From: Candidatus Latescibacterota bacterium
Lineage (GTDB): Bacteria > Latescibacterota > UBA2968 > UBA8231
Assembly: GCA_965215195.1 (NCBI GenBank)
Contig: CBDCDC010000002.1
Span: 2,208,001-2,272,000 of the forward strand
DNA length: 64,000 nucleotides
Direction of reading: 5' to 3'
Made by a program: the position numbers and the translations under genes. Position 1 is the first letter of the stretch, and each line of letters begins with the position of its first letter. The notes under the pieces were generated by a model, which saw only the letters and a list, made by a program, of their open reading frames with translations, did not search any database and was not told where the DNA came from. Positions 5,656 through 42,981 of this stretch are shown piece after piece.

Positions 5656-7602
5656 ATGCCCCCAGCCCCCCAGCCCCCCCCCGCAATTCGCCTGCCGGCG
5701 ATGCTGACTGGCTTGGTGCTCTGCGCCCTGATCGCCGTCGGCCTGCCCTATGGGGAATTCGTCATCAAGGGCACTCGGCTGGGCTTGAGTTCATCGACGC
5801 CGGCCGCCTTTTTCTTGCTCTTCTCGCTGCTCGCGTTGGTGCAACCGCTGCTGAGGCTAGGGCAGCGGCAGTGGGCCTTCAACCGCGCCGAGCTGCTGCT
5901 GATTACCGCGATGATGATGCTGGCAACGGCGATCCCGTCGCGGGGCTTTACCGGTGCCACAATCCCCGCCATTTCGAGTGTGCTCTACTACGCGACCCCA
6001 GAAAATAGCTGGGCCGAGCTGCTAGTGCCCCACATCCCCACTTGGATGATCGTCCAAGACGAGGTGGCGATCAAGCAGTTTTACGAGGGGCTACCCCGCG
6101 GCGAATCCATCCCCTATGGCGCTTGGGTCGAGCCGCTTTTCTGGTGGTTGCTCTTTATGGCCGCCTTCTACCTCGTGCTCATCTGCGCGATGGTGATTAT
6201 GCGGCGGCAGTGGATGGACCACGAGCGGTTGCTCTACCCGCTGGTGCAAGTGCCGTTGAGGATGATTGAGGACGGCCCGCAACCAGCGCGCCTAAAGCCC
6301 TTTTTGCGCAATCCAATAATGTGGGCTGGCTTTGCAGTACCGGCGATCCTCAATACGATCAACTCCTTTAGCCACTACTACGAATTCGCGCCGCGCGTCG
6401 ATCTCAACCTGCCGCTCGCTTTGGGGCACGACGCGGTCGTCTTGCGCGTCCGGCTCAACTACCTGATGATGGGCTTGGCCTATTTTATTAATACGGGAAT
6501 TTCCGGCAGTTTGTGGTTCTTCTATCTGGTAGCCAAAGCCCAAGAATGGGCCTGCTCGACCCTCGGCATCTTCACCACCGAAGAGCTCGACGCTTACAGC
6601 CACGCCGGCCCCACCACGGGCATGTTGAGCCATCAGAGCATGGGCGCGATGATTGCGCTGGTCGTCTTGGGGCTGTGGACGGCGCGCGGGCATCTAAGGG
6701 CCGTGTGGCAGCAAGCCCGAGCCGGCCGCAGCGCAGCCGGGGAGTTGCTGTCCTATCGGACGGCCTTGGTGGGCTTGGCCGTAGGCTCAGCCGTCATGGG
6801 CTTGTGGCTGTGGCAGACGGGATTGCCTTGGTGGGCGGTGGTGCTTTTCCTCGGCGCGGCATTTGCCATCTTCCTCGCCCTCACGCGCGTGATTGTCGAA
6901 GCCGGGCTCTCGTCGGCCGTGGAGGGGCTTTCGGGCGCGGGCTTTGTGGTCTCGGGCGTCGGCTCAACCGCGCTGGGGGCGACCGGGATGATGGCGCTGG
7001 GCTTTACGCTCGCTTGGGCGGGCGACCTGCTGGTCTTTATGATGGCCCCCTGCGCCAACGGCATCCGCATGTTGCACGGCCTAAAGGTAGAGCGCCGGCG
7101 CGTCTTGGCGATGCTAACGGCGGCCTTGGCCATCGGCCTTTTGGGCTCGATCTATGCGACCCTGAACCTGGGCTACCAGTACGGGGCGCTCAACCTGCAC
7201 CGCCAGTATTTCTCCGGACTTTTTGCCTTGGAGCCGTTTCGCTTTGCCGCCCGCTTCATTGAGACGCCGACCGGACCCTATTGGCTGGGGTGGCTCTGGA
7301 ACGGGGTGGGAGCCGCGGTCATGGCGCTCTTGCTGTGGGCGCGCCACCACTTGTTGTGGTGGCCCCTGCATCCCATAGGCTACGTGGCCAGCGGCACTTG
7401 GATTCTCGGCAATATATGGTTCAGCATCTTTCTCGCTTGGCTGATTAAGTCCGTCGTTTTGAAGTACATGGGGCCGAGCGGCTACCGCTCGACGCGCTGG
7501 TTCTTTTTGGGAGTGATCCTCGGGCAATTCGCTTCGGGCGGGGCTTGGTTGGTCGTGGATGGCTTCACCGGCATGACGGGCAACGTGATCCGCATGTACT
7601 GA
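5656..7602 (+). CDS. Polytopic membrane protein, DUF6785/DUF6784-like putative transporter
   Basis: About 650 aa with many TM segments; RRQWMDHERLLYPL, WWPLHPIGY and FFLGVILG motifs typical of this family; ATG 5656 preferred to GTG 5527. Confidence 0.7.
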   Translation: MPPAPQPPPAIRLPAMLTGLVLCALIAVGLPYGEFVIKGTRLGLSSSTPAAFFLLFSLLALVQPLLRLGQRQWAFNRAELLLITAMMMLATAIPSRGFTGATIPAISSVLYYATPENSWAELLVPHIPTWMIVQDEVAIKQFYEGLPRGESIPYGAWVEPLFWWLLFMAAFYLVLICAMVIMRRQWMDHERLLYPLVQVPLRMIEDGPQPARLKPFLRNPIMWAGFAVPAILNTINSFSHYYEFAPRVDLNLPLALGHDAVVLRVRLNYLMMGLAYFINTGISGSLWFFYLVAKAQEWACSTLGIFTTEELDAYSHAGPTTGMLSHQSMGAMIALVVLGLWTARGHLRAVWQQARAGRSAAGELLSYRTALVGLAVGSAVMGLWLWQTGLPWWAVVLFLGAAFAIFLALTRVIVEAGLSSAVEGLSGAGFVVSGVGSTALGATGMMALGFTLAWAGDLLVFMMAPCANGIRMLHGLKVERRRVLAMLTAALAIGLLGSIYATLNLGYQYGALNLHRQYFSGLFALEPFRFAARFIETPTGPYWLGWLWNGVGAAVMALLLWARHHLLWWPLHPIGYVASGTWILGNIWFSIFLAWLIKSVVLKYMGPSGYRSTRWFFLGVILGQFASGGAWLVVDGFTGMTGNVIRMY

Positions 7603-9497: not shown

Positions 9498-11060
9498 ATG
9501 CTTAAAATCTGGGTAAAGGACTTCGGCCCTATCATTGAGGGTTCGGTAAGCCTGAGACCCCTAACCATATTCGTTGGTCCTAGCAATGCCGGCAAGTCTT
9601 ATCTGGCGATGTTGGTTTACTCCCGGATGCAGTCTCTTGAGGCGTTCTCCAGTACCCCCTATGGTGGATTCTCGGGTCGCGATCACTTTATGCCTAGAAG
9701 GCTGACTAGACGTAGAGTAGTCCCAGACCTGGACGAGCTAGAAATTAGCGAAGAAGTTCGCAAAGCCATCAGCGACTGGGTCCAGAAGCTCAAAACTAGT
9801 CCTCGTGAGACACTTGAGATTTCATTCGGAGATCTCCCTGAACAAGTGCGACGTCTGGTAGATGGCGGTGTCAAAAGATACCTGCAATCAACGGAACAGT
9901 TATTTAGCAGAGAACTGCAGAGGTGTCATGGAGACATTTCTGATATACGAAGTCGCAGAACGGGTGGTACTCACCTCCAGATCGGTCTTGAGCAGAGTCA
10001 GCCACTACTGAGGCTGAACTTTGAAGAAGAGAAAGACTCCCTTCGGACTTTGCCTAGCGAAGAATGGGATATATCCCAACAGAAGTTCAAGACTCCTGGA
10101 AGTCTGGTAAGTTCATTGCAAGCCGAGACGTCAAGACAAGACAAGGTATCAAGGCGCAATCGCCGGTCAAGAGAAACCTTGGAGATGCAATATATCGACT
10201 TTCTAGATCTGCTGATAGAGCATGCTTTAACCGCACTTTTTGAGGGGTTCCCAAGAAGTTGTTATTACCTTCCGGCAGCACGATCCGGGATTGCTCAGGG
10301 CCATAAGGCCATAGCGAGCATCCTAGTGCGGCAATCTTCTTTCGCCGCGATAAGTCCCTTGGAGATACCCACACTCTCCGGCATCATTACCGACTTCATG
10401 GGACATATACTTACCATGGAACAGGCAGGAGGCCGACATCACAGGTCAGGCATGAATAAAATGGGAGAGGTGGTAGATTTTATGGAGCGCGAAGTAGTGC
10501 GCGGAAAAGTCGACATCGAACGCAGCGGAGAAGTAACCTATCCAGAAATTTCATATGCCCCTATTACAGCTCAACCTATTGTGGGCAAATTCCCTTTCCA
10601 CAAAACGTCTTCCATGGTCTCAGAGTTAGCTCCGGTTATACTATTCTTGAAGTATTTAGTTCGCCCGGAGGATCTAGTTATCCTAGAAGAGCCAGAGTCG
10701 CACTTGCACCCTGCGAGCCAACGACAGATGGCTAGAGGTATCGCACGGTTGGTAAAAGCTGGCGTAAAAGTCATCATCACTACCCATAGTGACTACTTCA
10801 TCGGACAAATCAACAACCTGCTGAAACTCAGCCACGCCAGCAAGGAAAAGCGCACAAAGAGAGGCTACGCCTCCACGGATTGCTTGAAGTCGGATGACGT
10901 AGGTGCATACCACTTCCTGTTGGACGATAACTTGGGGGGAAGTTTAGTTAAAGAACTACCGATTATCCCTGATTTTGGCATTGATGAGCAGGAACTTGCT
11001 GCTGTTTCTGAAGCACTTTACGAAGAGACCATTTCGCTCCAAAGGGTTCGAGCCAAATAA
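9498..11060 (+). CDS. ABC-class ATPase (AAA_15/AAA_21, AbiEii/OLD/AriA-like), defence-associated
   Basis: VKDFGPI, GPSNAGKS Walker A, YLPAARSG, SSMVSEL, ILEEPESHLHP, TTHSDY; lower GC than flanks by eye. Confidence 0.88.
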   Translation: MLKIWVKDFGPIIEGSVSLRPLTIFVGPSNAGKSYLAMLVYSRMQSLEAFSSTPYGGFSGRDHFMPRRLTRRRVVPDLDELEISEEVRKAISDWVQKLKTSPRETLEISFGDLPEQVRRLVDGGVKRYLQSTEQLFSRELQRCHGDISDIRSRRTGGTHLQIGLEQSQPLLRLNFEEEKDSLRTLPSEEWDISQQKFKTPGSLVSSLQAETSRQDKVSRRNRRSRETLEMQYIDFLDLLIEHALTALFEGFPRSCYYLPAARSGIAQGHKAIASILVRQSSFAAISPLEIPTLSGIITDFMGHILTMEQAGGRHHRSGMNKMGEVVDFMEREVVRGKVDIERSGEVTYPEISYAPITAQPIVGKFPFHKTSSMVSELAPVILFLKYLVRPEDLVILEEPESHLHPASQRQMARGIARLVKAGVKVIITTHSDYFIGQINNLLKLSHASKEKRTKRGYASTDCLKSDDVGAYHFLLDDNLGGSLVKELPIIPDFGIDEQELAAVSEALYEETISLQRVRAK

Positions 11061-35979: not shown

Positions 35980-36007
35980 CTACGCGGTAAAACGCCCTGA
36001 TTTGTAG

Positions 36008-36090
36008 CTTTCCGACCTCCTAGCCGGGTGAAGAAGGATAACCTGCACGGGGAAATCGACACCGGGGCCGCGGAGGGCAAAGAAATGTAG
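36008..36090 (+). pseudogene. mazE: C-terminal stub of an AbrB/MazE antitoxin, frameshifted
   Basis: LSDLLAG / KKDNLHGEIDTGAAEGKEM* matches the MazE C-terminal pattern LxxLLxxxTxENxHxExDxGxxxGxE. Confidence 0.65.
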
Positions 36091-36110
36091 TGCGGTCGGC
36101 CGAGTACGTC

Positions 36111-36266
36111 TCAAAACGCGGCGAGGCAAAATGGTTGATCTTCAATCCTCAAGCCGGTCACGAGCTCAGGAAGATATGAACGAAACTTCTCAGACTCGTT
36201 GCGATACTTCGAGTACAGCATTTTGATCAGTTCGTCTTTTGAATTAGGCACTTTTTTCGCAGACAT
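36111..36266 (-). CDS. Small 51-aa ORF divergent from the island, possibly a truncated gene
   Basis: Hand translation MSAKKVPNSKDELIKMLYSKYRNESEKFRSYLPELVTGLRIEDQPFCLAAF*; below the ORF-track cutoff. Confidence 0.35.
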   Translation of the reverse strand: MSAKKVPNSKDELIKMLYSKYRNESEKFRSYLPELVTGLRIEDQPFCLAAF

Positions 36267-36454
36267 GGCACACTCTGTGTTCTCAATCTTTCGTTGTCAG
36301 GCAACCAGTACTGGAATGTTAAATAAAGTTATAAAATTATAGCGTTCCGTTCAGAAAATAGCGTATATTGGAGGGCAGTTGAGTCAGGTTCATCATTCTA
36401 CCTGTGGTTTTCAAATAGTTAGTACAGTTTACTTATCCTATACATCGCAACTGA

Positions 36455-37342
36455 ATGAAGGAGGTTTCCGAAATAGTCGTGAAGACGAGTACCGTAACGT
36501 ATCGCGCCCTAAGCCTAGGAGCGGGAGCGCAGAGTTCAGTCCTAGCGCTTCTCTTATCGCGGTCCGACCCTCACTTGGTCAAACTTGGTTATCCCAAGCC
36601 GGACGTCGCTGTCTTCGCCGACACCGGGTGGGAGCCGGATTATGTGTACCGTCACTTGGACTGGCTTGAGGAGCAACTTGAGTATCCGCTGCTCCGAGTG
36701 TCAGACGGCGATCTGAAGACCAACTTAAAAAAAGGACGCACGGTGTCGAACCATCGCTTTGTCGATGTCCCTTTGTTCATGGTCAATGAGGATGGCAAGA
36801 AGGGCATGCTGCGACGGCAATGCACCAACCACTACAAAATCAGACCCATCTATCGACGGATCAGGGCACTCGCTGGTGGACAGCGTGGCCGGCCATTCCC
36901 GAAGGGTACACATGCCGAAATGTGGCTCGGGATTTCACTGGACGAGGTGGGCCGCATGAAACCGAGCAGGGAACCTTGGGTTGAGCATCGCTGGCCTCTA
37001 GTGGACCTCGGCATGTCGCGCCGCGATTGCGTCGAGTGGTTTTCTGCTGAGTATCCAGGCCGCCACTTGCCTCGATCGGCTTGTGTCATATGTCCGTATC
37101 GGTCAGATGAACACTGGCTGGAACTGAAACGGTCTGAACCGACTAGCTTTGACGAGGCCGTAGAGTTCGACCGCTGGCTCCGCAGAAGCACTGAGACGCC
37201 AGTACGCAAGCTACTGAACGGTCGTCCATATCTGCACTCCGCCCGCCGCCCCCTCGCCAGTGTCATAAAAGAACGGGAGACGGAAAGCGCGAACAGTATC
37301 AACAACTTCAATAATGAGTGCGAAGGCCTCTGCGGTGTCTGA
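36455..37342 (+). CDS. PP-loop (PAPS reductase/DndC-superfamily-like) protein with Cys motifs
   Basis: LSLGAGAQSS PP-loop, FADTGWE, RQCT..YKI.PI, GISLDE, SACVICP, C-terminal ECEGLCG. Confidence 0.8.
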   Translation: MKEVSEIVVKTSTVTYRALSLGAGAQSSVLALLLSRSDPHLVKLGYPKPDVAVFADTGWEPDYVYRHLDWLEEQLEYPLLRVSDGDLKTNLKKGRTVSNHRFVDVPLFMVNEDGKKGMLRRQCTNHYKIRPIYRRIRALAGGQRGRPFPKGTHAEMWLGISLDEVGRMKPSREPWVEHRWPLVDLGMSRRDCVEWFSAEYPGRHLPRSACVICPYRSDEHWLELKRSEPTSFDEAVEFDRWLRRSTETPVRKLLNGRPYLHSARRPLASVIKERETESANSINNFNNECEGLCGV

Positions 37343-38582
37343 AACAGAGGCGGAGAAGGTCAGTCCCAAGTACCCGCTATATCCCTACCAGCGGCAGGTG
37401 CTGGCCGACATCGTCCGTGCCCTATCATTGCCTGAGCGTCGAGCCGTCGCTCATCTTCCTACCGGTGCCGGAAAGACCAGAATCGCAGCCCACACGGCCT
37501 GTCACCTGCTCAACGAGAAAGATACCGATGACTCCCTTGTCATTTGGTTGGCGGCTACAGAGGAACTTTGCGAACAGGCGGCAGACCAACTCTCAGACGC
37601 TTGGACTTATCTGGGACGGCGAGATGCCTGCATTCACCGACACTGGGGTAATCGGTCGCTAGAACTAAGGCGTCTCCCATCCGGGTTCCTAGTGACAGGT
37701 CTTGCCAAACTGCGCTCCGCTGCGTTCCAAGACAACACCCTCCTTGCACACCTTGCACACTGTGCCGCGGCTGTCATCTTCGACGAGGCTCATCAGGCAG
37801 TTGCGGAAACCTACTCCTTCATAACTGAGCAGCTATGTAGTGTAAGGCCGCCACTTCTCGGCCTTACGGCCACGCCAGGGCGCACTACCAATCTCACGGA
37901 CGCAGATTATCGACTTGCCAACATGTTCAATCACAAAAAGGTTTCAATAGACCCAAAGGGACACGATAGCCCCGTTACTTATCTGATCCAGAACCGCTAC
38001 CTCGCCGATCCACGTTTTGTACCAATCAGCTTCGACTCCGATGCTCCAATCTCCGACCCTCAACCCGGTATGGATTACAGCACGGATGACCTCGACAGTC
38101 TAGGCCGCGACCGCGACCGCACACTCAAGATCGTCGAACTCGCCGAGGCTGCGGCTACACGTCATCCTCGTACAATCGTATTCTGTCCCTCCGTGGAAGG
38201 TGCTATGGATTGCAACTGTCTCCTTCGAGCCAAAGGAGTTCTAGCTTACGTGGTTACTGCCAATACCCCCGGTGAAGACCGTCGGGCGATCATCGACGTT
38301 TTCAGAGGCGACAGTAGGAAGCATATCGTGTTGCTCAACTATGGCGTACTCACCGCCGGCTTCGATGCACCCCGTACCCGATGCGTCATAATCGCTCGCC
38401 CCACCACATCGCTGGTGCTCTACTCACAAATGGCGGGACGAGCACTGCGCGGCCCTAGGGCTGGTGGAAATTCAAAAGCTGAGATACTCACCGTTGCCGA
38501 TACGAACCTTCCGGGGTTTGGATCTGTAACTGATGCATTCACAAACTGGGAGGAACTATGGTCGACCAACTCGCCGAACTAA
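37314..38582 (+). CDS. SF2 DEAH-box helicase (ResIII-like + helicase C)
   Basis: YPYQ Q-motif, LPTGAGKT, FDEAH, GLTATP, LTAGFDAP, QMAGRALR. Confidence 0.92.
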   Translation: MSAKASAVSETEAEKVSPKYPLYPYQRQVLADIVRALSLPERRAVAHLPTGAGKTRIAAHTACHLLNEKDTDDSLVIWLAATEELCEQAADQLSDAWTYLGRRDACIHRHWGNRSLELRRLPSGFLVTGLAKLRSAAFQDNTLLAHLAHCAAAVIFDEAHQAVAETYSFITEQLCSVRPPLLGLTATPGRTTNLTDADYRLANMFNHKKVSIDPKGHDSPVTYLIQNRYLADPRFVPISFDSDAPISDPQPGMDYSTDDLDSLGRDRDRTLKIVELAEAAATRHPRTIVFCPSVEGAMDCNCLLRAKGVLAYVVTANTPGEDRRAIIDVFRGDSRKHIVLLNYGVLTAGFDAPRTRCVIIARPTTSLVLYSQMAGRALRGPRAGGNSKAEILTVADTNLPGFGSVTDAFTNWEELWSTNSPN

Positions 38583-40414
38583 AAGATGAAGATCGCAGCT
38601 TATTTCCGGGCAATTTCACCATACGGGCTCTTCGAGACAGTAGGTATCACAACACCGCGTATGCCGTTGCCGAACTCATCGACAACTCAATAGACGCAAA
38701 TGCCCTACGGGTTGACCTCCTCTGTATGGAAGAGTTTCAGAGAGTAGGGTCGCGGAATCAGCGACGAGTTTCCGAAGTGGCGGTCCTTGACAACGGCGAC
38801 GGGATGGACGTGAAGACTCTCTTTGATGCCCTCAAATTTGGCGGAGGAACCCGTCATGATTCGGATAGAGGAGTAGGGAAATACGGGATGGGCCTCCCAA
38901 CCTCGTCAATGTCACAATGCAAAAGGGTGGATGTATGGACTTGGCAGGACGGCTTGGATTCTTCGGTATGGCACTCCAGCATCGACGCTGACGACATTGA
39001 GCGAGGGAACCATGAGGTTCCCATTCCTGATCAAGAGACGCCTATACCTGAGGTATGGATGTCCGCTGGCAGCGACGAGATCTATGAGAACCGCTCAGGT
39101 ACTCTCGTCGTCTGGACCAAACTGGACAAGATTCAGTGGAGAACCGGCAGCACTATCCTCAAACATACAGCACGGGAAGTCGGCCGGATCCATCGGCACT
39201 GGATTGATGCGGAGATGACAAGAATACGAGTCGGCTTTTTTCTTAATAACCGCCCTACCATAATTGAGGGCGAGGACTATATCGTCGCAAACGATCCTCT
39301 CTACTTGATGAAGCCTTCGTCTACTCCTGAGCCTTGGAATAACGAACCGATGTTTAGAGAATGGACCAAGAAAGAGTATACACCTATCGTGGACGGTAAA
39401 GAGGTCTCTATTGAGGTGAAGTACTCAATCGTTAAGCCTGAAGCCTTGCAGACGAACATGGTCACGCAGAATCCCGGTGCTGAAAAGCATGGTACACACG
39501 CTAGGCACAACATCGGCGTATCGGTTGTTCGAGAGGATAGGGAGATTGTGCTCGAAGACGCCTTCCTCAGAGAAGGTGGCAGTGCTGAGAACCCACAAAA
39601 CCGCTGGTGGGGTTGTGAGGTGCATTTCCGTCGCAGTTGCGATGAGTTGTTTGGCGTAGATCACAACAAGCAGATGGCTGCGAACTTCACACATGCTGCG
39701 AAAACGCTCGCCCGGGACGACCGTCCCAATCAGGTAATACTAGATGAGATGGGAGTCGACGACGACATAATCTACACCATAGTGGGAGATATCCGGGACC
39801 AAACGCGTACTATGATGCAAGCAATCAGGCAGATGTTTGCACAGCGACGCGATCCACAGAATGGAGGTGGTAGAAGAAGCCCGGAAAATAAGGCTGTGAA
39901 GACTGCCACCGACGCAGATCGAGACGCTATAGATGCAGGTATTGAGACGCCAACCAAGACTGATAGAGATCGTGAGCAAATTCCATCCCAAGAGCGGGAA
40001 GCGCGCCTTACGCAACAATTTATTGAAGCTGGTCAGGCCGATCAAGACGCCCAACGACTCGCGGAGCTGTTGGTAGAGGAAGATCTCTCATACCAGTTCA
40101 ACTCGGCTCAGCTTGACGGATTCCAGATTTTTAACGTGCGCTCGAACCAAGGAGTCCTGCACATCAATCTCAATACCGATCATCCGATCTATGACCTCCT
40201 CAAACACATTGAAGATGACCTTCCAGATGATGTCGACGAGAGCAACCCTGCGTTCCAAGCCAGTGTTGCGATCAGATTATTGCTGTCGTCGTGGGCTCGG
40301 ATGGAGGACCAGACCGAATCGCGAGAAGAGCGAACTCGCATTCAGGACATTGCCATGAACTGGGGGCGTCAGGTAGATAAGGCCATCAATCAACTGCGTG
40401 ATAGAGACGGATAG
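38558..40414 (+). CDS. MORC/GHKL (HATPase_c_3) ATPase
   Basis: AVAELIDNSIDA, DNGDGM, GKYGMGL, GTLV; S5-like region and C-terminal INLNTDHP. Confidence 0.88.
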   Translation: MVDQLAELKDEDRSLFPGNFTIRALRDSRYHNTAYAVAELIDNSIDANALRVDLLCMEEFQRVGSRNQRRVSEVAVLDNGDGMDVKTLFDALKFGGGTRHDSDRGVGKYGMGLPTSSMSQCKRVDVWTWQDGLDSSVWHSSIDADDIERGNHEVPIPDQETPIPEVWMSAGSDEIYENRSGTLVVWTKLDKIQWRTGSTILKHTAREVGRIHRHWIDAEMTRIRVGFFLNNRPTIIEGEDYIVANDPLYLMKPSSTPEPWNNEPMFREWTKKEYTPIVDGKEVSIEVKYSIVKPEALQTNMVTQNPGAEKHGTHARHNIGVSVVREDREIVLEDAFLREGGSAENPQNRWWGCEVHFRRSCDELFGVDHNKQMAANFTHAAKTLARDDRPNQVILDEMGVDDDIIYTIVGDIRDQTRTMMQAIRQMFAQRRDPQNGGGRRSPENKAVKTATDADRDAIDAGIETPTKTDRDREQIPSQEREARLTQQFIEAGQADQDAQRLAELLVEEDLSYQFNSAQLDGFQIFNVRSNQGVLHINLNTDHPIYDLLKHIEDDLPDDVDESNPAFQASVAIRLLLSSWARMEDQTESREERTRIQDIAMNWGRQVDKAINQLRDRDG

Positions 40415-40416
40415 GA

Positions 40417-41256
40417 ATGTACGGGCGGCCAGGAGACATATTGAGCAGTATTTGTTCAGGTGCTCAGCAGCTCATCATCGCGGCACCGTACGTCAAGGCT
40501 GATGCTCTTACTAAAGTTCTGGCCGACGTTAGTCCGGCAGCATCCCTCATCTGTATCACGAGGTGGAATTTACACGACTTCGCAGCAGGTGTGTCCGACA
40601 CCGAATGCCGCACTATTATAACTGAGCGTGGAGGCTCATTCAGGCTCCACCCGTCACTTCACGCCAAGTACTATCGAATCGATGATGTGATCCTCGTTGG
40701 GTCTGCGAACCTCACATCTTCCGCAATGGGCTGGTCACCCCATCCTAATTTGGAGATTCTCTGTCGTCCAAGAGACGACTTCGACGCGGATACCTTTCAG
40801 CAGTTCCTATTTGAAGGAGCGAGAGAGATTGGCGATAAGGAATTCGCACATTGGGAATCCATAGCTAAAATTGGCGCTCAAGACACGAGAAACGCAACTG
40901 GCGGCCAACCCCGGCTTGACACTTGGCGACCAGCGACTCGTGACTTTAGGAACTTAGAACTCTCCTATCAAGGCAGAGAAGACGAGATAGCTTCATTCGA
41001 TGAGCAGCGAGCGGCGCAGCGCGACATCCAAGCACTCCTAATCCCGTCGGGCTTGACCGATGAGCAGGTCCGAACGTGGGCATCGGCTTGTCTTCTCGCG
41101 GCACCTTTCACTAACGCCGTGATACGGCTACATGAGATGGAGGCACCAAGTGCTTCCCGCTCGCTCGCTGAGACCTATAGCCTCAGTTCTACCGAGGCAA
41201 GAAGAGACATGGAAACAGTACAGAATTGGCTCGCATCCCTCGTCCCTGAGACTTGA
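40417..41256 (+). CDS. Phospholipase D-like (single HKD) putative nuclease
   Basis: IAAPYVK, LHAKYY..DD...VGSANLT...NLE. Confidence 0.85.
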   Translation: MYGRPGDILSSICSGAQQLIIAAPYVKADALTKVLADVSPAASLICITRWNLHDFAAGVSDTECRTIITERGGSFRLHPSLHAKYYRIDDVILVGSANLTSSAMGWSPHPNLEILCRPRDDFDADTFQQFLFEGAREIGDKEFAHWESIAKIGAQDTRNATGGQPRLDTWRPATRDFRNLELSYQGREDEIASFDEQRAAQRDIQALLIPSGLTDEQVRTWASACLLAAPFTNAVIRLHEMEAPSASRSLAETYSLSSTEARRDMETVQNWLASLVPET

Positions 41257-41447
41257 AGTTTTGCCAAACGAAAGAGAGAAATTTGATCCTGCCTGCGTAG
41301 CCGGGGCCGGTCGGCTTATCCCACCAAGCGTACACCGCTTCGGTATCGACGGAGATATAAAAGGACCTAGAGCGACTCCTCCAGACCAGCCCGCCTATAC
41401 GTTCACAGTCGTCTCTTGCGTCCCAGTACTCGCGCATCGGCGGAAAC

Positions 41448-41554
41448 TACACGACACCAGCCCTCAGCCTGCCAAGGATCGAGGGCGTCCCGCCCTCGAT
41501 CCCGGACCCATCGGAAACAGCAGAAAATGCGTACTCTAAAGTAAGTGTCGTGTA
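41448..41554. mobile_element. MITE-like element: TACACGACAC...GTGTCGTGTA ends enclosing a REP hairpin
   Basis: 10-bp terminal inverted repeats; internal perfect stem GGATCGAGGGC-GTCCC-GCCCTCGATCC (41476-41502); related to 54444-54546 in opposite orientation. Confidence 0.65.
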
Positions 41555-41572
41555 CTAAGCTATCGGGTTACG

Positions 41573-41914
41573 CTAGCCCCAGCTCCCGTCCTTCCGCTTG
41601 TGGATGAAAATTGGATTTCCTCCAGGATCGCTGATCATGGCCACATGGCAGGCAGAGAGCTCATTCGGACCCCACTCAACCTCCACGCCTTTTCTACGCA
41701 ATTCTGCAATCGCCTCGTCAAAATCGCTCACGGCTAAGGAAAGACCGCTACCTCCTTTACCGTTTGCCAAAGGCGAGCCTTCATAAGTGCCAAACAGCAC
41801 TAATGTTATTGGAGGCACTGAAAATTCCGCCCAATTCCACTGCGGATTGTGCAGTTCCAGCTTGAGCTCAAGAGTATCCCGATAGAAGGAAACCGCTTCC
41901 TCCAAGTTATGCAC
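41573..41914 (-). CDS. VOC/glyoxalase family protein (true start probably about 12 codons upstream)
   Basis: AVSFYRDTLEL, WAEF, LRRKGV, SDPGGN; frame continues upstream (INIRGVDFVVHY) towards a GGAGGT RBS. Confidence 0.85.
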   Translation of the reverse strand: MHNLEEAVSFYRDTLELKLELHNPQWNWAEFSVPPITLVLFGTYEGSPLANGKGGSGLSLAVSDFDEAIAELRRKGVEVEWGPNELSACHVAMISDPGGNPIFIHKRKDGSWG

Positions 41915-42005: not shown

Positions 42006-42686
42006 TCATGCACCAGCGTCCCTCGGCACCTGAATCTTGATCCCCCAAGACAGAGTAGAGAACCTGATCGTCTCTACGGAAAAACCCAAACCGCGCAGAT
42101 AGCCGACGGACGCATCAACGTGCCAAAAAAACTCTTCTTCAATAGCGTCTGCTGTAGCGTCGTCGCCAATGGAACGATAGCGATCAATCAAAATCCGCTC
42201 CTCCTCTGCGCTCTCCAACATTAGATCCCCAAACAAAGCACACCCCCCAGGCAATAGCCGCTGCACAAGCTGATTAAATAGAAGTTCTTTCTCCTGCTGA
42301 GTAAGATGATGTGCGGCGTATGTACTAATCGCGACATCGAATGGAGGAATATCGGCGTCGAAGTACTCCAGTATATCTGCTTGCACATACGAGATATGGG
42401 ATGCTCCACGGAGCTTTTGTTGCGCAATTTTATTCATTTCAGCAGAGACATCTACACACACAAGAGACCGGCACGGCGGCAAGCGAGCGGTCAAATTTCC
42501 AGTCCCAGAGCCAAGTTCCACAACGGCCGAATCCTCGGTGATACCGGCGTTCTGCGCGCTCCAGTCAAGGACCTCGGCGTAGCCCTCTCGAATGGGATCC
42601 TCAGATCTAAGCACATCCTGATCATACGTGGCAGCATCCTCGTCGTGATTGTAGAGATCTACGTTTCTACTTCTCACCTCCGTCAT
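42006..42686 (-). CDS. Class I SAM-dependent methyltransferase
   Basis: VVELGSGTGNL, VDVS, FDVAISTYAAHHL, LLPGG. Confidence 0.88.
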   Translation of the reverse strand: MTEVRSRNVDLYNHDEDAATYDQDVLRSEDPIREGYAEVLDWSAQNAGITEDSAVVELGSGTGNLTARLPPCRSLVCVDVSAEMNKIAQQKLRGASHISYVQADILEYFDADIPPFDVAISTYAAHHLTQQEKELLFNQLVQRLLPGGCALFGDLMLESAEEERILIDRYRSIGDDATADAIEEEFFWHVDASVGYLRGLGFSVETIRFSTLSWGIKIQVPRDAGA

Positions 42687-42712
42687 CCTTTCACAGCGTT
42701 TTTGAATAACCA

Positions 42713-42981
42713 TCAAAGAAGCCCCTCCTCGCCGGGCGTCTCGTTTTCTACCGAAGAAGGGGACAACGCCCGGTGCTGTGCGCGGTTGATCGCCGCAAGA
42801 AGACGTTGGGCGTTTTTGGGCGATCTGAGGAGATGAGCCGTCGCGAGGAGGCTGGCTAATTCGTCGGCTGAAACCAGCGCGACGTCTTCGGCATTGCGCC
42901 GCCGTATAATCACCGGCTCGCGGGTGGAGGCGACTTTGTCGCAGAGGGATGCGAGTTTGGATCTGGCCTGAGTGTGGTCAT
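42713..42981 (-). pseudogene. yefM: Phd/YefM antitoxin, frameshifted near the start, toxin absent
   Basis: QARSKLASLCDKV...EPVIIRRR..EDVALVS...HLLRSPKNAQRL; the ATG at 42981 after GGAG is out of frame. Confidence 0.75.

Follow-up and report, generated by a model that had tools for sequence, protein, structure and literature searches.

A four-gene cassette of Latescibacterota that looks like an unnamed variant of sulfur-based restriction–modification

What might a compact enzyme of the sulfur-transfer type be doing at the head of an operon that otherwise resembles a restriction module? The question is raised by four genes in a 64,000-nucleotide stretch of the genome of a Candidatus Latescibacterota bacterium (GenBank assembly GCA_965215195.1, contig CBDCDC010000002.1, positions 2,208,001 to 2,272,000), hereafter the window, in whose coordinates all features are given. 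A preliminary description, made from the sequence letters, had read these genes as a single-enzyme writer of a DNA mark paired with three restriction components, and this reading is supported by the finding that relatives of the last three genes (the trio) stand beside canonical sspBCD in many genomes. On comparative evidence, we consider it rather probable that the four genes form a restriction–modification-like defence cassette, in which a one-gene writer, probably of phosphorothioate, is combined with a helicase–MORC–PLD restriction module. The proposed target of this cassette is phage and plasmid DNA.

Layout and recurrence of the cassette

All four genes lie on the plus strand. Gene 1 (36455–37342) encodes a 295-aa enzyme of the PP-loop/PAPS-reductase superfamily, of the phage/plasmid type; gene 2 (37314–38582) a 422-aa SF2 helicase/translocase with ResIII and Helicase_C domains; gene 3 (38558–40414) a 618-aa GHKL ATPase that resembles MORC/SMCHD1 and whose C-terminal region is helical; and gene 4 (40417–41256) a 279-aa nuclease of the phospholipase D (PLD) family with a single HKD motif and a conserved C-terminal domain without a recognized fold. 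The tight coupling and the domain assignments proposed earlier (PP-loop enzyme, SF2 helicase, MORC ATPase, HKD nuclease) are both borne out, the former by overlaps of 29 and 25 nt and a 2-nt gap before gene 4, the latter by profile searches.

The cassette is indeed lower in GC (0.50–0.58) than its flanks (0.58–0.65), and the value falls to 0.45 at 36000–36499, upstream of gene 1. On the downstream side, the MITE-like element noticed before corresponds to a unit of ~110 bp at about 41446–41556, for which a search of the same genome returned 64 matches, 40 of them covering most of its length. The “mazE stub” thought to bound the cassette upstream was not confirmed: for the small ORF on the minus strand at 36111–36266, Pfam gives nothing even when matches up to E ≤ 10 are admitted. 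The AT-rich intergenic stretch that precedes gene 1 on the plus strand (36267–36454) presumably serves as the promoter region; a consensus promoter scan found no site within it, promoter and terminator scans of the entire region gave no more sites than chance would, and nucleotide comparison showed that the stretch is not kept in related loci. No direct or inverted repeats were found at the cassette ends. The closest loci show 84–87% nucleotide similarity, which is confined to 36458–about 41250, ending at the start codon of gene 1 and the stop codon of gene 4. We take the cassette to be horizontally mobile.

The arrangement is real, and the recurrence of all four genes in the same order in other phyla puts it far beyond chance. 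Among 28 loci found through gene 1, the cassette is intact and in order at 21, damaged only in genes 2, 3, or 4 at five, and cut by a contig end at two, and it spans at least five phyla, being present in metagenome-assembled genomes of Latescibacterota, Chloroflexota, Rhodothermaceae, Binatia, and Spirochaetia. Conversely, gene 1 is located directly upstream at all 11 loci found through gene 3 at ≥76% identity. There is no conserved fifth gene, other ORF families outside the cassette being common to at most six of the 28 loci. The cassette copies of gene 1 constitute a tight subgroup, mutually 69–91% identical, with the nearest gene 1 cluster (at 50% identity) outside this subgroup standing at 60%, and gene 1 is the best-conserved gene in 17 of the 21 intact loci. 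In all seven damaged cassettes, the lesion falls in gene 2 or gene 3 while gene 1 keeps its full length, though this sample is biased, five of the seven having been found through gene 1; some of them have also lost genes downstream of the lesion. Decay should take this course if a cell dies on losing the writer before the other genes. Apparent helicase–MORC fusions at two loci (L113 and L067) were dismissed, as the genes are separate ORFs in both and tblastn had aligned through a stop codon.

Gene 1 and its relation to SspD

The remark that gene 1 looks like a compact phage-type enzyme proved apt, since its best family match is phrog_424, the “PAPS reductase” family of phages and plasmids (E 3.7e-39; residues 16–295, a full-length match). 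The Pfam PAPS_reduct model gives a weak score (E 1.7e-3; 18.8 bits against a gathering cut-off of 22.5), and gene 1 is below the threshold of every NCBIfam model. It was also considered as a CysH and rejected as such, given this sub-threshold score, the presence of a separate 117-bit CysH in the genome, and the defence-cassette context. Among the PADLOC models, gene 1 has no DndC or BrxP match at E ≤ 0.01, whereas true SspD proteins do match BrxP, and it is recognized by the SspD model with E 1.5e-13 and 49 bits, compared with 303–448 bits for SspD proteins linked to the trio. An hhalign comparison of gene 1 with the trio-linked SspD proteins yields 99.5% probability and E 2.4e-22. By these sequence measures, gene 1 is a distant homologue of SspD.

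The motifs SLGAGAQSS, RQCT, CVICP, and CEGLC reported for gene 1 are all found in its translation. Within the family, residues G22, G24, Q26, S27, D56, R121, C123, C210, C213, C289, and C293 are invariant in 48 members. Every cysteine conserved in SspD is kept, namely that of RxCT, the CxxC pair, and the C-terminal pair. The PP-loop, in contrast, reads SLGAGxQSS in all 48 members, while SspD has SGGKDS, so that the Lys-Asp is lacking; because of this alteration, ATP-dependent adenylation as in SspD, DndC, and TdpC is not assured. The ECEGxCG tail and the C…CxxC pattern resemble those of the APS-reductase-type CysH of the same genome (HCCQ, GCIIC, KECGLH). The AF2 model of gene 1 has a pLDDT of 92.6, and its nearest solved folds are TtuA, CysH, and the [4Fe-4S] enzyme LarE, with TM of about 0.35–0.40. 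When compared with PDB sequences, gene 1 as a single sequence produced chance matches to NOTUM only, and its family profile a sole match to “PptA” (21fy_C, E 0.0037).

Outside the cassette, 48 phage and 191 plasmid records contain solitary homologues of 28–45% identity, in neighbourhoods of replication, leading-region, and methyltransferase genes, and this solitary occurrence fits a self-sufficient DNA modifier. A recognizable DNA-binding domain is absent from gene 1 itself; within the family, a winged-helix fusion is seen (P0232), and the match to one homologue falls inside the C-terminal portion of a coding sequence that carries the annotation of DNA cytosine methyltransferase. For a further fusion protein, carrying DUF6339 (P0125), the plasmid collection contains no full-length counterpart.

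The trio and canonical sspBCD

Gene 2 matches ResIII (8e-19), DEAD (6e-14), and Helicase_C (7e-14) in Pfam and, among the PADLOC models, best matches PbeA (1.9e-18); the motifs PTGAGKT, DEAH, TATPGR, and QMAGRALRG are present in its translation. Gene 3 is recognized by HATPase_c_3 (2.3e-21), its family profile finds human MORC2 as the best PDB match (1.5e-9), along with MORC4 and MORC3, and its AF2 model (pLDDT 85.6) is best superimposed on the ATPase modules of SMCHD1 and MORC2/3/4 over 395–476 aligned columns; residues E39, N43, D78, G82, G107, G110, and G112 are invariant. Gene 4 matches PLDc_2 (Pfam, 7e-5) and DrmC (PADLOC, 8e-10) and bears a complete HxK..GSxN motif, with H82, K84, S96, N98, and E113 invariant in 33 sequences and W170, P172, D203, and W271 conserved in the C-terminal part.

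One metagenome scan found 542 relatives of this trio, and such a relative is present in 24 of 168 genomes of the phylum; a scan of viral contigs gave distant trios only, none with ≥45% identity to gene 3. On three plasmids, the trio homologues adjoin a bona fide SspD (PADLOC 6e-91 to 3e-131); compared with the cassette, these sspBCD-linked plasmid proteins are 40–44% (gene 2), 35–38% (gene 3), and 31–39% (gene 4) identical. At one further locus (L145), the trio comes after SspB (5e-103), SspC (E 0), and SspD (3e-135). Among metagenome loci with a gene 3 less than 45% identical, SspD is on the same contig in 40 of 77; where at least 4.5 kb is available on both sides, the ratio rises to 11 of 14, the other three having no SspD nearby. 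The same division is seen within Latescibacterota, where gene 1 precedes all 11 high-identity trios and SspD lies no more than about 5 kb from eight of the nine low-identity ones; at L142, a trio of the sspBCD type has no SspD nearby. Trios linked to sspBCD occur on plasmids, on metagenome contigs, and in genomes of the same phylum, and no writer but SspBCD was seen to accompany the sister trio.

In terms of gene order, the compact gene 1 takes the place of sspBCD in the cassette, and we regard the linkage of the trio to sspBCD as the decisive finding, one that lends new support to the putative split into a writer and a restriction arm. According to the accessible text of PMC8092258, 2,211 of 2,678 sspBCD cases lack both SspE and SspFGH, and further restriction partners were expected by its authors for this reason. 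As a frequent neighbour of sspBCD, the trio is a candidate restrictor for these loci, which make up roughly 84% (PMC8092258).

The cassette itself is not a fragment of a dnd or ssp cluster. Its genome (95% complete) has no SspB or SspC at 1e-5, the SspC model finding its gene in a positive-control genome (G052), and DndD is absent above the cut-off, the best match scoring 25.6 bits against 245.85. SspC was likewise not found in three of four other cassette genomes tested. The only other PAPS_reduct gene in the genome is that of CysH (117 bits), and there are nine Aminotran_5 genes that could supply sulfur in trans.

A putative one-gene writer with a restriction module

In the mechanism that we propose, gene 1 would mark the host's own DNA unaided, most probably by exchanging a backbone oxygen for sulfur (phosphorothioate). 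Its probable Fe-S site would involve C123, C210, and C213, plus the C289/C293 pair on a flexible C-terminal tail, and a cysteine desulfurase with a housekeeping role would act as the sulfur donor. Genes 2–4 would constitute the restriction arm, in which the SF2 translocase, together with an ATP-driven clamp of the MORC-like kind, would be loaded onto DNA and scan it. Gene 4, having a single HKD motif, must dimerize to build its active site and would cut DNA devoid of the mark. We infer that DNA is the substrate of gene 1 and that the mark has the chemical nature given above; likewise, the mark is presumed to inhibit rather than activate the trio, and the three trio proteins are supposed to form a complex. 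In related systems, phosphorothioate marking needs the nickase SspB, the ATPase SspC, and SspD together.

None of the four proteins is given a name by PADLOC (2023) or NCBIfam (June 2026) models, in agreement with the initial failure to match the locus to a named system, and the openly accessible article texts searched describe neither the cassette nor an ssp-linked helicase–GHKL–PLD module. The cassette looks like an unnamed variant of sulfur-based restriction–modification. Ssp is similar in that gene 1 is homologous to SspD with the same conserved cysteines, a writer is combined with a separate restriction module, and close relatives of genes 2–4 are encoded directly beside canonical sspBCD. 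Unlike Ssp, however, the cassette and its genome are without SspB (the DUF4007 nickase) and SspC (a large ATPase), the PP-loop is not SGGKDS, and the restriction arm consists of a helicase, a GHKL ATPase, and a PLD nuclease, with no match to SspE (DUF262-type) in PADLOC. Identity of genes 2–4 with SspFGH was rejected from the published description, which, in the accessible text, assigns a Walker A motif to SspF and an FtsK-like C-terminus to SspH (PMC8092258).

Of the Tdp restriction proteins, TdpA is a ring ATPase and TdpB is a nuclease, and neither is known to be a helicase, a MORC ATPase, or a PLD nuclease. TdpABC, the phosphorothioate system of thermophiles (An et al. 2025), is nevertheless comparable in its economy, as one protein, TdpC, is sufficient for phosphorothioate synthesis and works with a separate restriction pair, according to the accessible text of PMC12914056. 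Dnd and Pbe share a writer of the PAPS-reductase superfamily, and in PbeA an HKD nuclease and an SF2 helicase are joined in one protein (PMC10853773); the cassette differs in lacking DndE/PbeD and the CxC ABC ATPase, in keeping the nuclease and helicase separate, and in adding a MORC-like ATPase, and membership in Dnd was rejected since there is no DndC match at E ≤ 0.01 and no DndD above the cut-off in the genome. The MORC/paraMORC operons, as far as the accessible text of Iyer, Abhiman, and Aravind (2008) describes them, place a GHKL-S5 ATPase beside an SF2 helicase and a nuclease, HKD being among the nuclease types, but their writer, where present, is a DNA methylase; PP-loop, DndC, and phosphoadenosine are terms that this paper never uses. 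The cassette encodes a MORC-type GHKL ATPase, assigned by profile and fold rather than by residue comparison of the S5 motif, with an adjacent SF2 helicase and nuclease. DISARM is echoed in the weak resemblance of gene 4 to the PLD protein DrmC (8e-10), and membership was rejected, as genes 2 and 3 match no DrmA or DrmB (DUF1998) model and there is no methylase. BREX type 4 has a PAPS-reductase-type writer in place of a methylase; this assignment was also rejected, with no BrxP match at E ≤ 0.01 and PglZ, BrxC, and BrxL absent from the cassette, and so was Mza, from PADLOC, NCBIfam, and profile searches.

It is unlikely, though worth weighing, that the architecture is as proposed but that gene 1 writes something other than phosphorothioate, for instance a base that has been thiolated or aminated, or some different product of a PAPS/APS-reductase-like reaction, which a diverged trio has adapted to read. 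The missing Lys-Asp of the PP-loop in 48 of 48 family members speaks for it, as do the CysH-like tail and cysteine pattern and the presence of the base-thiolating TtuA, with LarE, among the closest solved folds; moreover, the cassette trio could read a different mark because it is only ~35% identical to the sspBCD-linked one. Against this stand SspD as the most specific homologue among the defence models, the fact that the sister trio was seen with no writer other than the phosphorothioate machinery SspBCD, and the phosphorothioate made by the published one-gene writers of the superfamily (accessible text of PMC12914056). A different arrangement, which we find distinctly unlikely, would have gene 1 write the mark and the trio sense it, so that host marks activate the trio against invaders and genes 2–4 are harmless without gene 1. 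SspE acts in this way with the same SspBCD writers, and phosphorothioate marking is only partial in known systems, both according to the accessible text of PMC8092258; yet gene 1 survives with gene 2 or 3 broken in seven of seven decayed cassettes (the biased sample mentioned above), and modules of a PLD nuclease and an SF2 helicase are described as classical cutters of unmodified DNA in the accessible texts of Iyer 2008 and PMC10853773.

Highly improbable, finally, is a gene 1 that does not modify DNA at all and instead acts as a regulator or in the manner of an antitoxin, consumes nucleotides as an effector, or works as a tRNA or cofactor sulfurtransferase, the cassette then serving abortive infection or non-defence DNA metabolism. 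Many PP-loop enzymes are indeed tRNA and cofactor sulfurtransferases, gene 1 has no recognizable DNA-binding domain, and a preprint, in its accessible part, names a PAPS reductase among candidate effectors, with a nucleoid protein as its partner. However, gene 1 stands precisely where the DNA writer SspBCD is otherwise encoded, its catalytic-type residues are all invariant, and its family includes the winged-helix fusion and the match within a cytosine methyltransferase CDS, with phage and plasmid homologues lying in replication, leading-region, and methyltransferase neighbourhoods.

Returning to the proposed phosphorothioate writer, gene 1 is here chromosomal and translationally coupled to the trio, whereas the phrog_424 homologues are solitary genes of mobile elements, which they presumably protect. 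According to the accessible text of PMC13551039, citing Piel 2022, a PAPS reductase of a phage helps it to escape from Dnd. Here, a member of this ubiquitous “PAPS reductase” family of phages and plasmids holds a fixed place in the writer slot of a restriction–modification-like cassette, and the function of the whole family becomes addressable. A bolder extension, which we hold to be rather doubtful, is that these proteins are self-sufficient DNA sulfur writers using an APS/PAPS-reductase-like site (altered PP-loop, Fe-S cysteines, and a catalytic cysteine in the flexible tail) without ATP-adenylation or Dnd/Ssp helpers, and that they would represent a third, mechanistically distinct route to backbone (or base) sulfur, with the trio as a previously unrecognized general restriction partner for both sspBCD and the one-gene writer. 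The cassette also bears on how a bacterial MORC-type ATPase works with a translocase and an HKD nuclease, and all of it fits a 4.8-kb construct; a one-gene sulfur writer, if true, would be a compact DNA-marking tool. The phage and plasmid “PAPS reductase” family comprises 4151 clusters at 50% identity, and the ESM-Atlas clusters nearest to gene 1 are 50–67% viral.

The cassette and its surroundings

The cassette consists of four ORFs on one strand, whose proteins were characterised by Pfam, PADLOC, and NCBIfam model searches: gene 1 (36455-37342), which has a weak match to PAPS_reduct and a match to SspD; gene 2 (37314-38582), an SF2 helicase with ResIII, DEAD, and Helicase_C matches; gene 3 (38558-40414), a GHKL ATPase (HATPase_c_3, 2.3e-21); and gene 4 (40417-41256), a member of the PLD family (PLDc_2, 7e-5; DrmC, 8e-10). 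The preliminary description, made from the sequence by a model, had presented them as tightly coupled and poorer in GC than the flanks, and both points are borne out: the ORF listing gives overlaps of 29 nt (genes 1 and 2) and 25 nt (genes 2 and 3) and a gap of 2 nt before gene 4, and the GC content is 0.50-0.58 vs. 0.58-0.65 in the flanks, which carry ordinary ABC-transporter genes. The MITE-like element proposed downstream is indeed a true dispersed repeat. The mazE stub proposed upstream finds no support: the 51-aa ORF directly preceding the cassette (36111-36266, minus strand) has no Pfam match even at E<=10.

The repeat, a unit of about 110 bp at 41446-41556 (inside 41257-41572), has 64 matches on both contigs of its own genome, 40 of which, at 77-95% identity, cover most of its length. 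It contains an internal palindrome (both-strand matches at query positions 219-252) and resembles a MITE/REP-type element belonging to this genome. Three minus-strand genes separate the cassette from the next ABC-transporter operon: one of the glyoxalase family (41573-41914), one for a SAM methyltransferase of the small-molecule type (42006-42716), and one for a truncated Phd/YefM antitoxin (42713-42913). Because of these genes and a GC content that stays at 0.49-0.50 until about 42500, the cassette is taken to lie within a larger variable island.

The helicase encoded by gene 2 keeps Walker A, DEAH, TAT, and QxxGRxxR. The gene 3 family profile, when compared with PDB sequences, retrieves MORC2 (1.5e-9), MORC4, MORC3, and SMCHD1; the structural model of gene 3 (pLDDT 85.6) aligns with the ATPase modules of SMCHD1 and MORC2/3/4 over 395-476 columns, and the GHKL N-box and G-boxes do not vary within the family. 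Gene 4 contains a single, complete HKD motif, in which H82, K84, S96, and N98 are invariant, and a conserved C-terminal domain for which the model searches gave no family match. In Nuc and PLD nucleases, one HKD motif makes half an active site, so gene 4 should act as a dimer. Domain, profile, and motif evidence agrees with the helicase, MORC-type ATPase, and HKD nuclease proposed at the outset. Iyer et al. (2008) assigned the theme of MORC, SF2 helicase, and nuclease to restriction-modification systems; a PP-loop or PAPS-reductase partner is not mentioned in their paper.

Conservation of the four genes as a unit

Among 4125 scored candidates, 2176 relatives of gene 1 were found at E<=1e-3; the best 120 of these all reach 75% identity or more, and a single one among them bears a name ("hypothetical protein"). 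Taking one genome per species, the survey via gene 1 yielded 28 loci from Latescibacterota, Chloroflexota/Dehalococcoidia, one Rhodothermaceae MAG, Binatia, and Spirochaetia. The four-gene synteny to be looked for elsewhere was found: in 21 of the 28 loci, the genes stand in order and none is matched over less than 90% of its length. The other seven comprise frameshifts in gene 3 (L007) and gene 2 (L019), an insertion of about 2 kb within gene 3 (L017), truncations past gene 3 residue 141 (L013) and gene 2 residue 136 (L021), and two cassettes that reach the contig end (L009 and L028).

The four genes are conserved as a self-contained unit. When all ORFs of at least 90 aa were clustered, no fifth family outside the cassette recurred in more than six of the 28 loci, the larger clusters being opposite-strand shadow ORFs within it. 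Nucleotide similarity to the closest loci (84-87%) extends from 36458 to about 41250, that is, from the first start codon to the last stop codon, and no terminal repeats were found at the cassette ends. Over the 21 intact loci, median identity falls from 80% (gene 1) through 78% (gene 2) and 72% (gene 3) to 66% (gene 4), gene 1 being the most conserved in 17 loci and gene 4 the least in 18. The distribution is patchy: a gene 3 homologue (E<=1e-20) occurs in 24 of 168 genomes of the phylum and, the window's own genome excluded, in nine of 30 of the genus.

Some genomes carry more than one copy. In G085, fragments of a second gene 1/gene 2 pair (L131, 9652-10006) lie about 1.6 kb from an intact cassette; G084 has two cassettes (L133 and L135), in one of which gene 3 is interrupted by a stop codon; and G134 has a cassette with gene 1 as well as a trio (genes 2-4) of the type found near sspBCD (L128 and L142), the latter without SspD in the fetched 13 kb.

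The gene 1 family

Gene 1 scores 18.8 bits against Pfam PAPS_reduct, below the cut-off of 22.5, and has no match in NCBIfam; its sole match to a defence model is PADLOC SspD (1.5e-13). Its best family is phrog_424, a phage "phosphoadenosine phosphosulfate reductase" (E 3.7e-39), in keeping with the earlier comparison to compact phage-associated enzymes. An exhaustive search (E<=1e-3) gave homologues in 4151 clusters at 50% identity, most of them stand-alone and 260-300 aa long. At 28-45% identity, homologues are present in 48 phage records, which include Pelagibacter, Geobacillus, Thermus P23-77, Salisaeta SSIP-1, and Mycobacterium abscessus prophages, and in 191 plasmid records, mostly from Agrobacterium and Rhizobium. 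The three contexts inspected were a phage-plasmid region in which a primase and two annotated DNA methyltransferases occur, a conjugative plasmid where the homologue adjoins a long ParB-family gene, and a phage replication module. The ESM-Atlas clusters nearest gene 1 are 50-67% viral.

Domain fusions were seen in a Pfam scan of 22 homologues (20 length variants and the two best short ones). Thirteen, of about 540 aa, carry an N-terminal DUF6339 before a domain 43-50% identical to gene 1 (P0124-P0127, P0131, P0132, P0134-P0136, P0138, P0149, P0164, and P0214), and one (P0232) has a winged helix-turn-helix; the plasmid collection contains no full-length copy of the DUF6339 fusion P0125. On the Mesorhizobium plasmid NZ_AP023261.1 (L030, 5485-6804), within a phage-plasmid region that also encodes a primase and another DNA methyltransferase, a 439-aa CDS annotated "DNA cytosine methyltransferase" contains a gene-1-like match (45% identity) in its C-terminal part (6001-6801).

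In 48 aligned family members, the PP-loop residues G22, G24, Q26, and S27 are invariant, as are D56, R121, C123, C210, C213, C289, and C293. The AlphaFold model of gene 1 is confident but for the last six residues (pLDDT 92.6). Among solved structures, the folds nearest to it are those of TtuA, CysH, and [4Fe-4S] LarE, at a TM of only about 0.35-0.40; among viral models, phage "PAPS reductases" come closest (TM 0.54). A profile of 19 trio-linked SspD proteins matches the gene 1 family with 99.5% probability (E 2.4e-22), pairing RWCT with RQC(123)T and CxFC with C210xxC213, and a cysteine pair ends both families; the PP-loop reads SLGAGxQSS in gene 1 vs. SGGKDS in SspD. The cysteine layout of gene 1 also resembles the APS-reductase pattern of the genome's own CysH (251 aa; HCCQ, GCIIC, KECGLH). 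The only solved chain matched by the family profile is PDB 21fy chain C ("PptA", 270 aa; E 0.0037), over the CxxC-containing half.

Proposed alternative writers and mode of action

When plasmids were searched with genes 3 and 4, homologues of genes 2-4, arranged co-linearly, turned up on those of Hymenobacter, Trichormus variabilis ATCC 29413, Roseobacter litoralis, and others, at 40-44%, 35-38%, and 31-39% identity, respectively. In all three loci inspected, the trio adjoins a "PAPS reductase family" gene that PADLOC identifies as a true SspD (6e-91 to 3e-131), next to a gene whose product of about 1100 aa is annotated "ATP-binding protein" in one locus and is hypothetical in two; some of these loci also have a DndB-like DGQHR protein and a cysteine desulfurase. 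Scanning metagenomes with the gene 3 alignment yielded 542 relatives, from which 80 loci were retained. In 77 of them, gene 3 is less than 45% identical to that of the window, and in 40 of the 77 the contig also carries SspD; of the remaining 37, 22 are contigs shorter than 6 kb, and where at least 4.5 kb is available on both sides, SspD is present in 11 of 14. The usual order is (cysteine desulfurase)-SspB-SspC-SspD-helicase-GHKL-PLD.

In the window's phylum, gene 3 is matched at 26 places (27 rows, one G136 gene being split into two fragments), of which 20 were examined, leaving out the window's own copy and five on short contigs. Where gene 3 is at least 76% identical, gene 1 lies immediately upstream of the helicase (11 of 11); where it is 32-35% identical, SspD lies within about 5 kb in eight of nine, the exception being L142, with no SspD nearby. 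In L145, the three genes upstream of the trio are SspB (5e-103), SspC (E 0), and SspD (3e-135). Therefore, two alternative writers appear to serve one homologous trio: the three-gene SspBCD or the single gene 1.

The cassette is rather likely to be restriction-modification-like, such that gene 1 would mark host DNA and genes 2-4 would cut DNA without the mark. The scheme takes the mark to be probably phosphorothioate, a specific point on which the chances are about even. In support, tdpC is reported to be sufficient by itself for making phosphorothioate (PMC12914056), and a PAPS reductase of a phage is reported to help it evade Dnd (PMC13551039, citing Piel 2022). SspE and SspFGH are missing from 83.9% of sspBCD loci, and the authors of that count anticipated further restriction partners (PMC8092258). 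Gene 1 is intact in all seven damaged cassettes, a sample biased by five having been found through gene 1; with this bias, the decay pattern fits a writer whose loss is not tolerated. Sulfur could be supplied in trans by the Aminotran_5 genes, of which the window's genome has nine.

Against phosphorothioate as the exact chemistry stand the altered PP-loop, which may leave ATP adenylation unused, and the identity of only about 35% between the cassette trio and the ssp-linked one; gene 1 might then write a mark other than phosphorothioate. Alternatively, the trio might sense the mark, following an SspE-like logic, or gene 1 might have a role that is not on DNA.

In this marking-and-cutting scheme, the cassette would operate in the manner of the Ssp or Tdp phosphorothioate systems. 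It does not belong to Ssp, since it lacks SspB, SspC, SspE, and SspFGH. Neither SspB nor SspC was found at 1e-5 in the window's genome (95% complete), where CysH is the only other PAPS_reduct gene; the SspC model, which recovered its target in the positive control G052, found none in three further cassette genomes and one in a fourth (G085), but distant from the cassette. Membership of DISARM (notwithstanding the weak DrmC match of gene 4) and of BREX type 4 likewise failed, as did that of Dnd: the window's genome has no DndD above the cut-off, so the locus is not a fragment of a dnd cluster. PADLOC 2.0 and NCBIfam 20.0 hold no model specific to any of the four proteins, consistent with the initial failure to match a named system. 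No description of the cassette or of the ssp-linked helicase-GHKL-PLD module was found in a literature search that covered main texts outside the subscription journals.

On a viral contig (L151), a PAPS-reductase-like gene (9667-10440) follows a trio of the distant type; it aligns with residues 17-293 of gene 1 at 28% identity, its alignment with SspD is weaker, and it may represent a third writer type. The helicases of sspBCD-linked trios (L051-L146) have about 530-545 aa vs. 409-456 aa in the cassettes with gene 1 (422 aa in the window), the difference being an N-terminal extension of about 110 aa.
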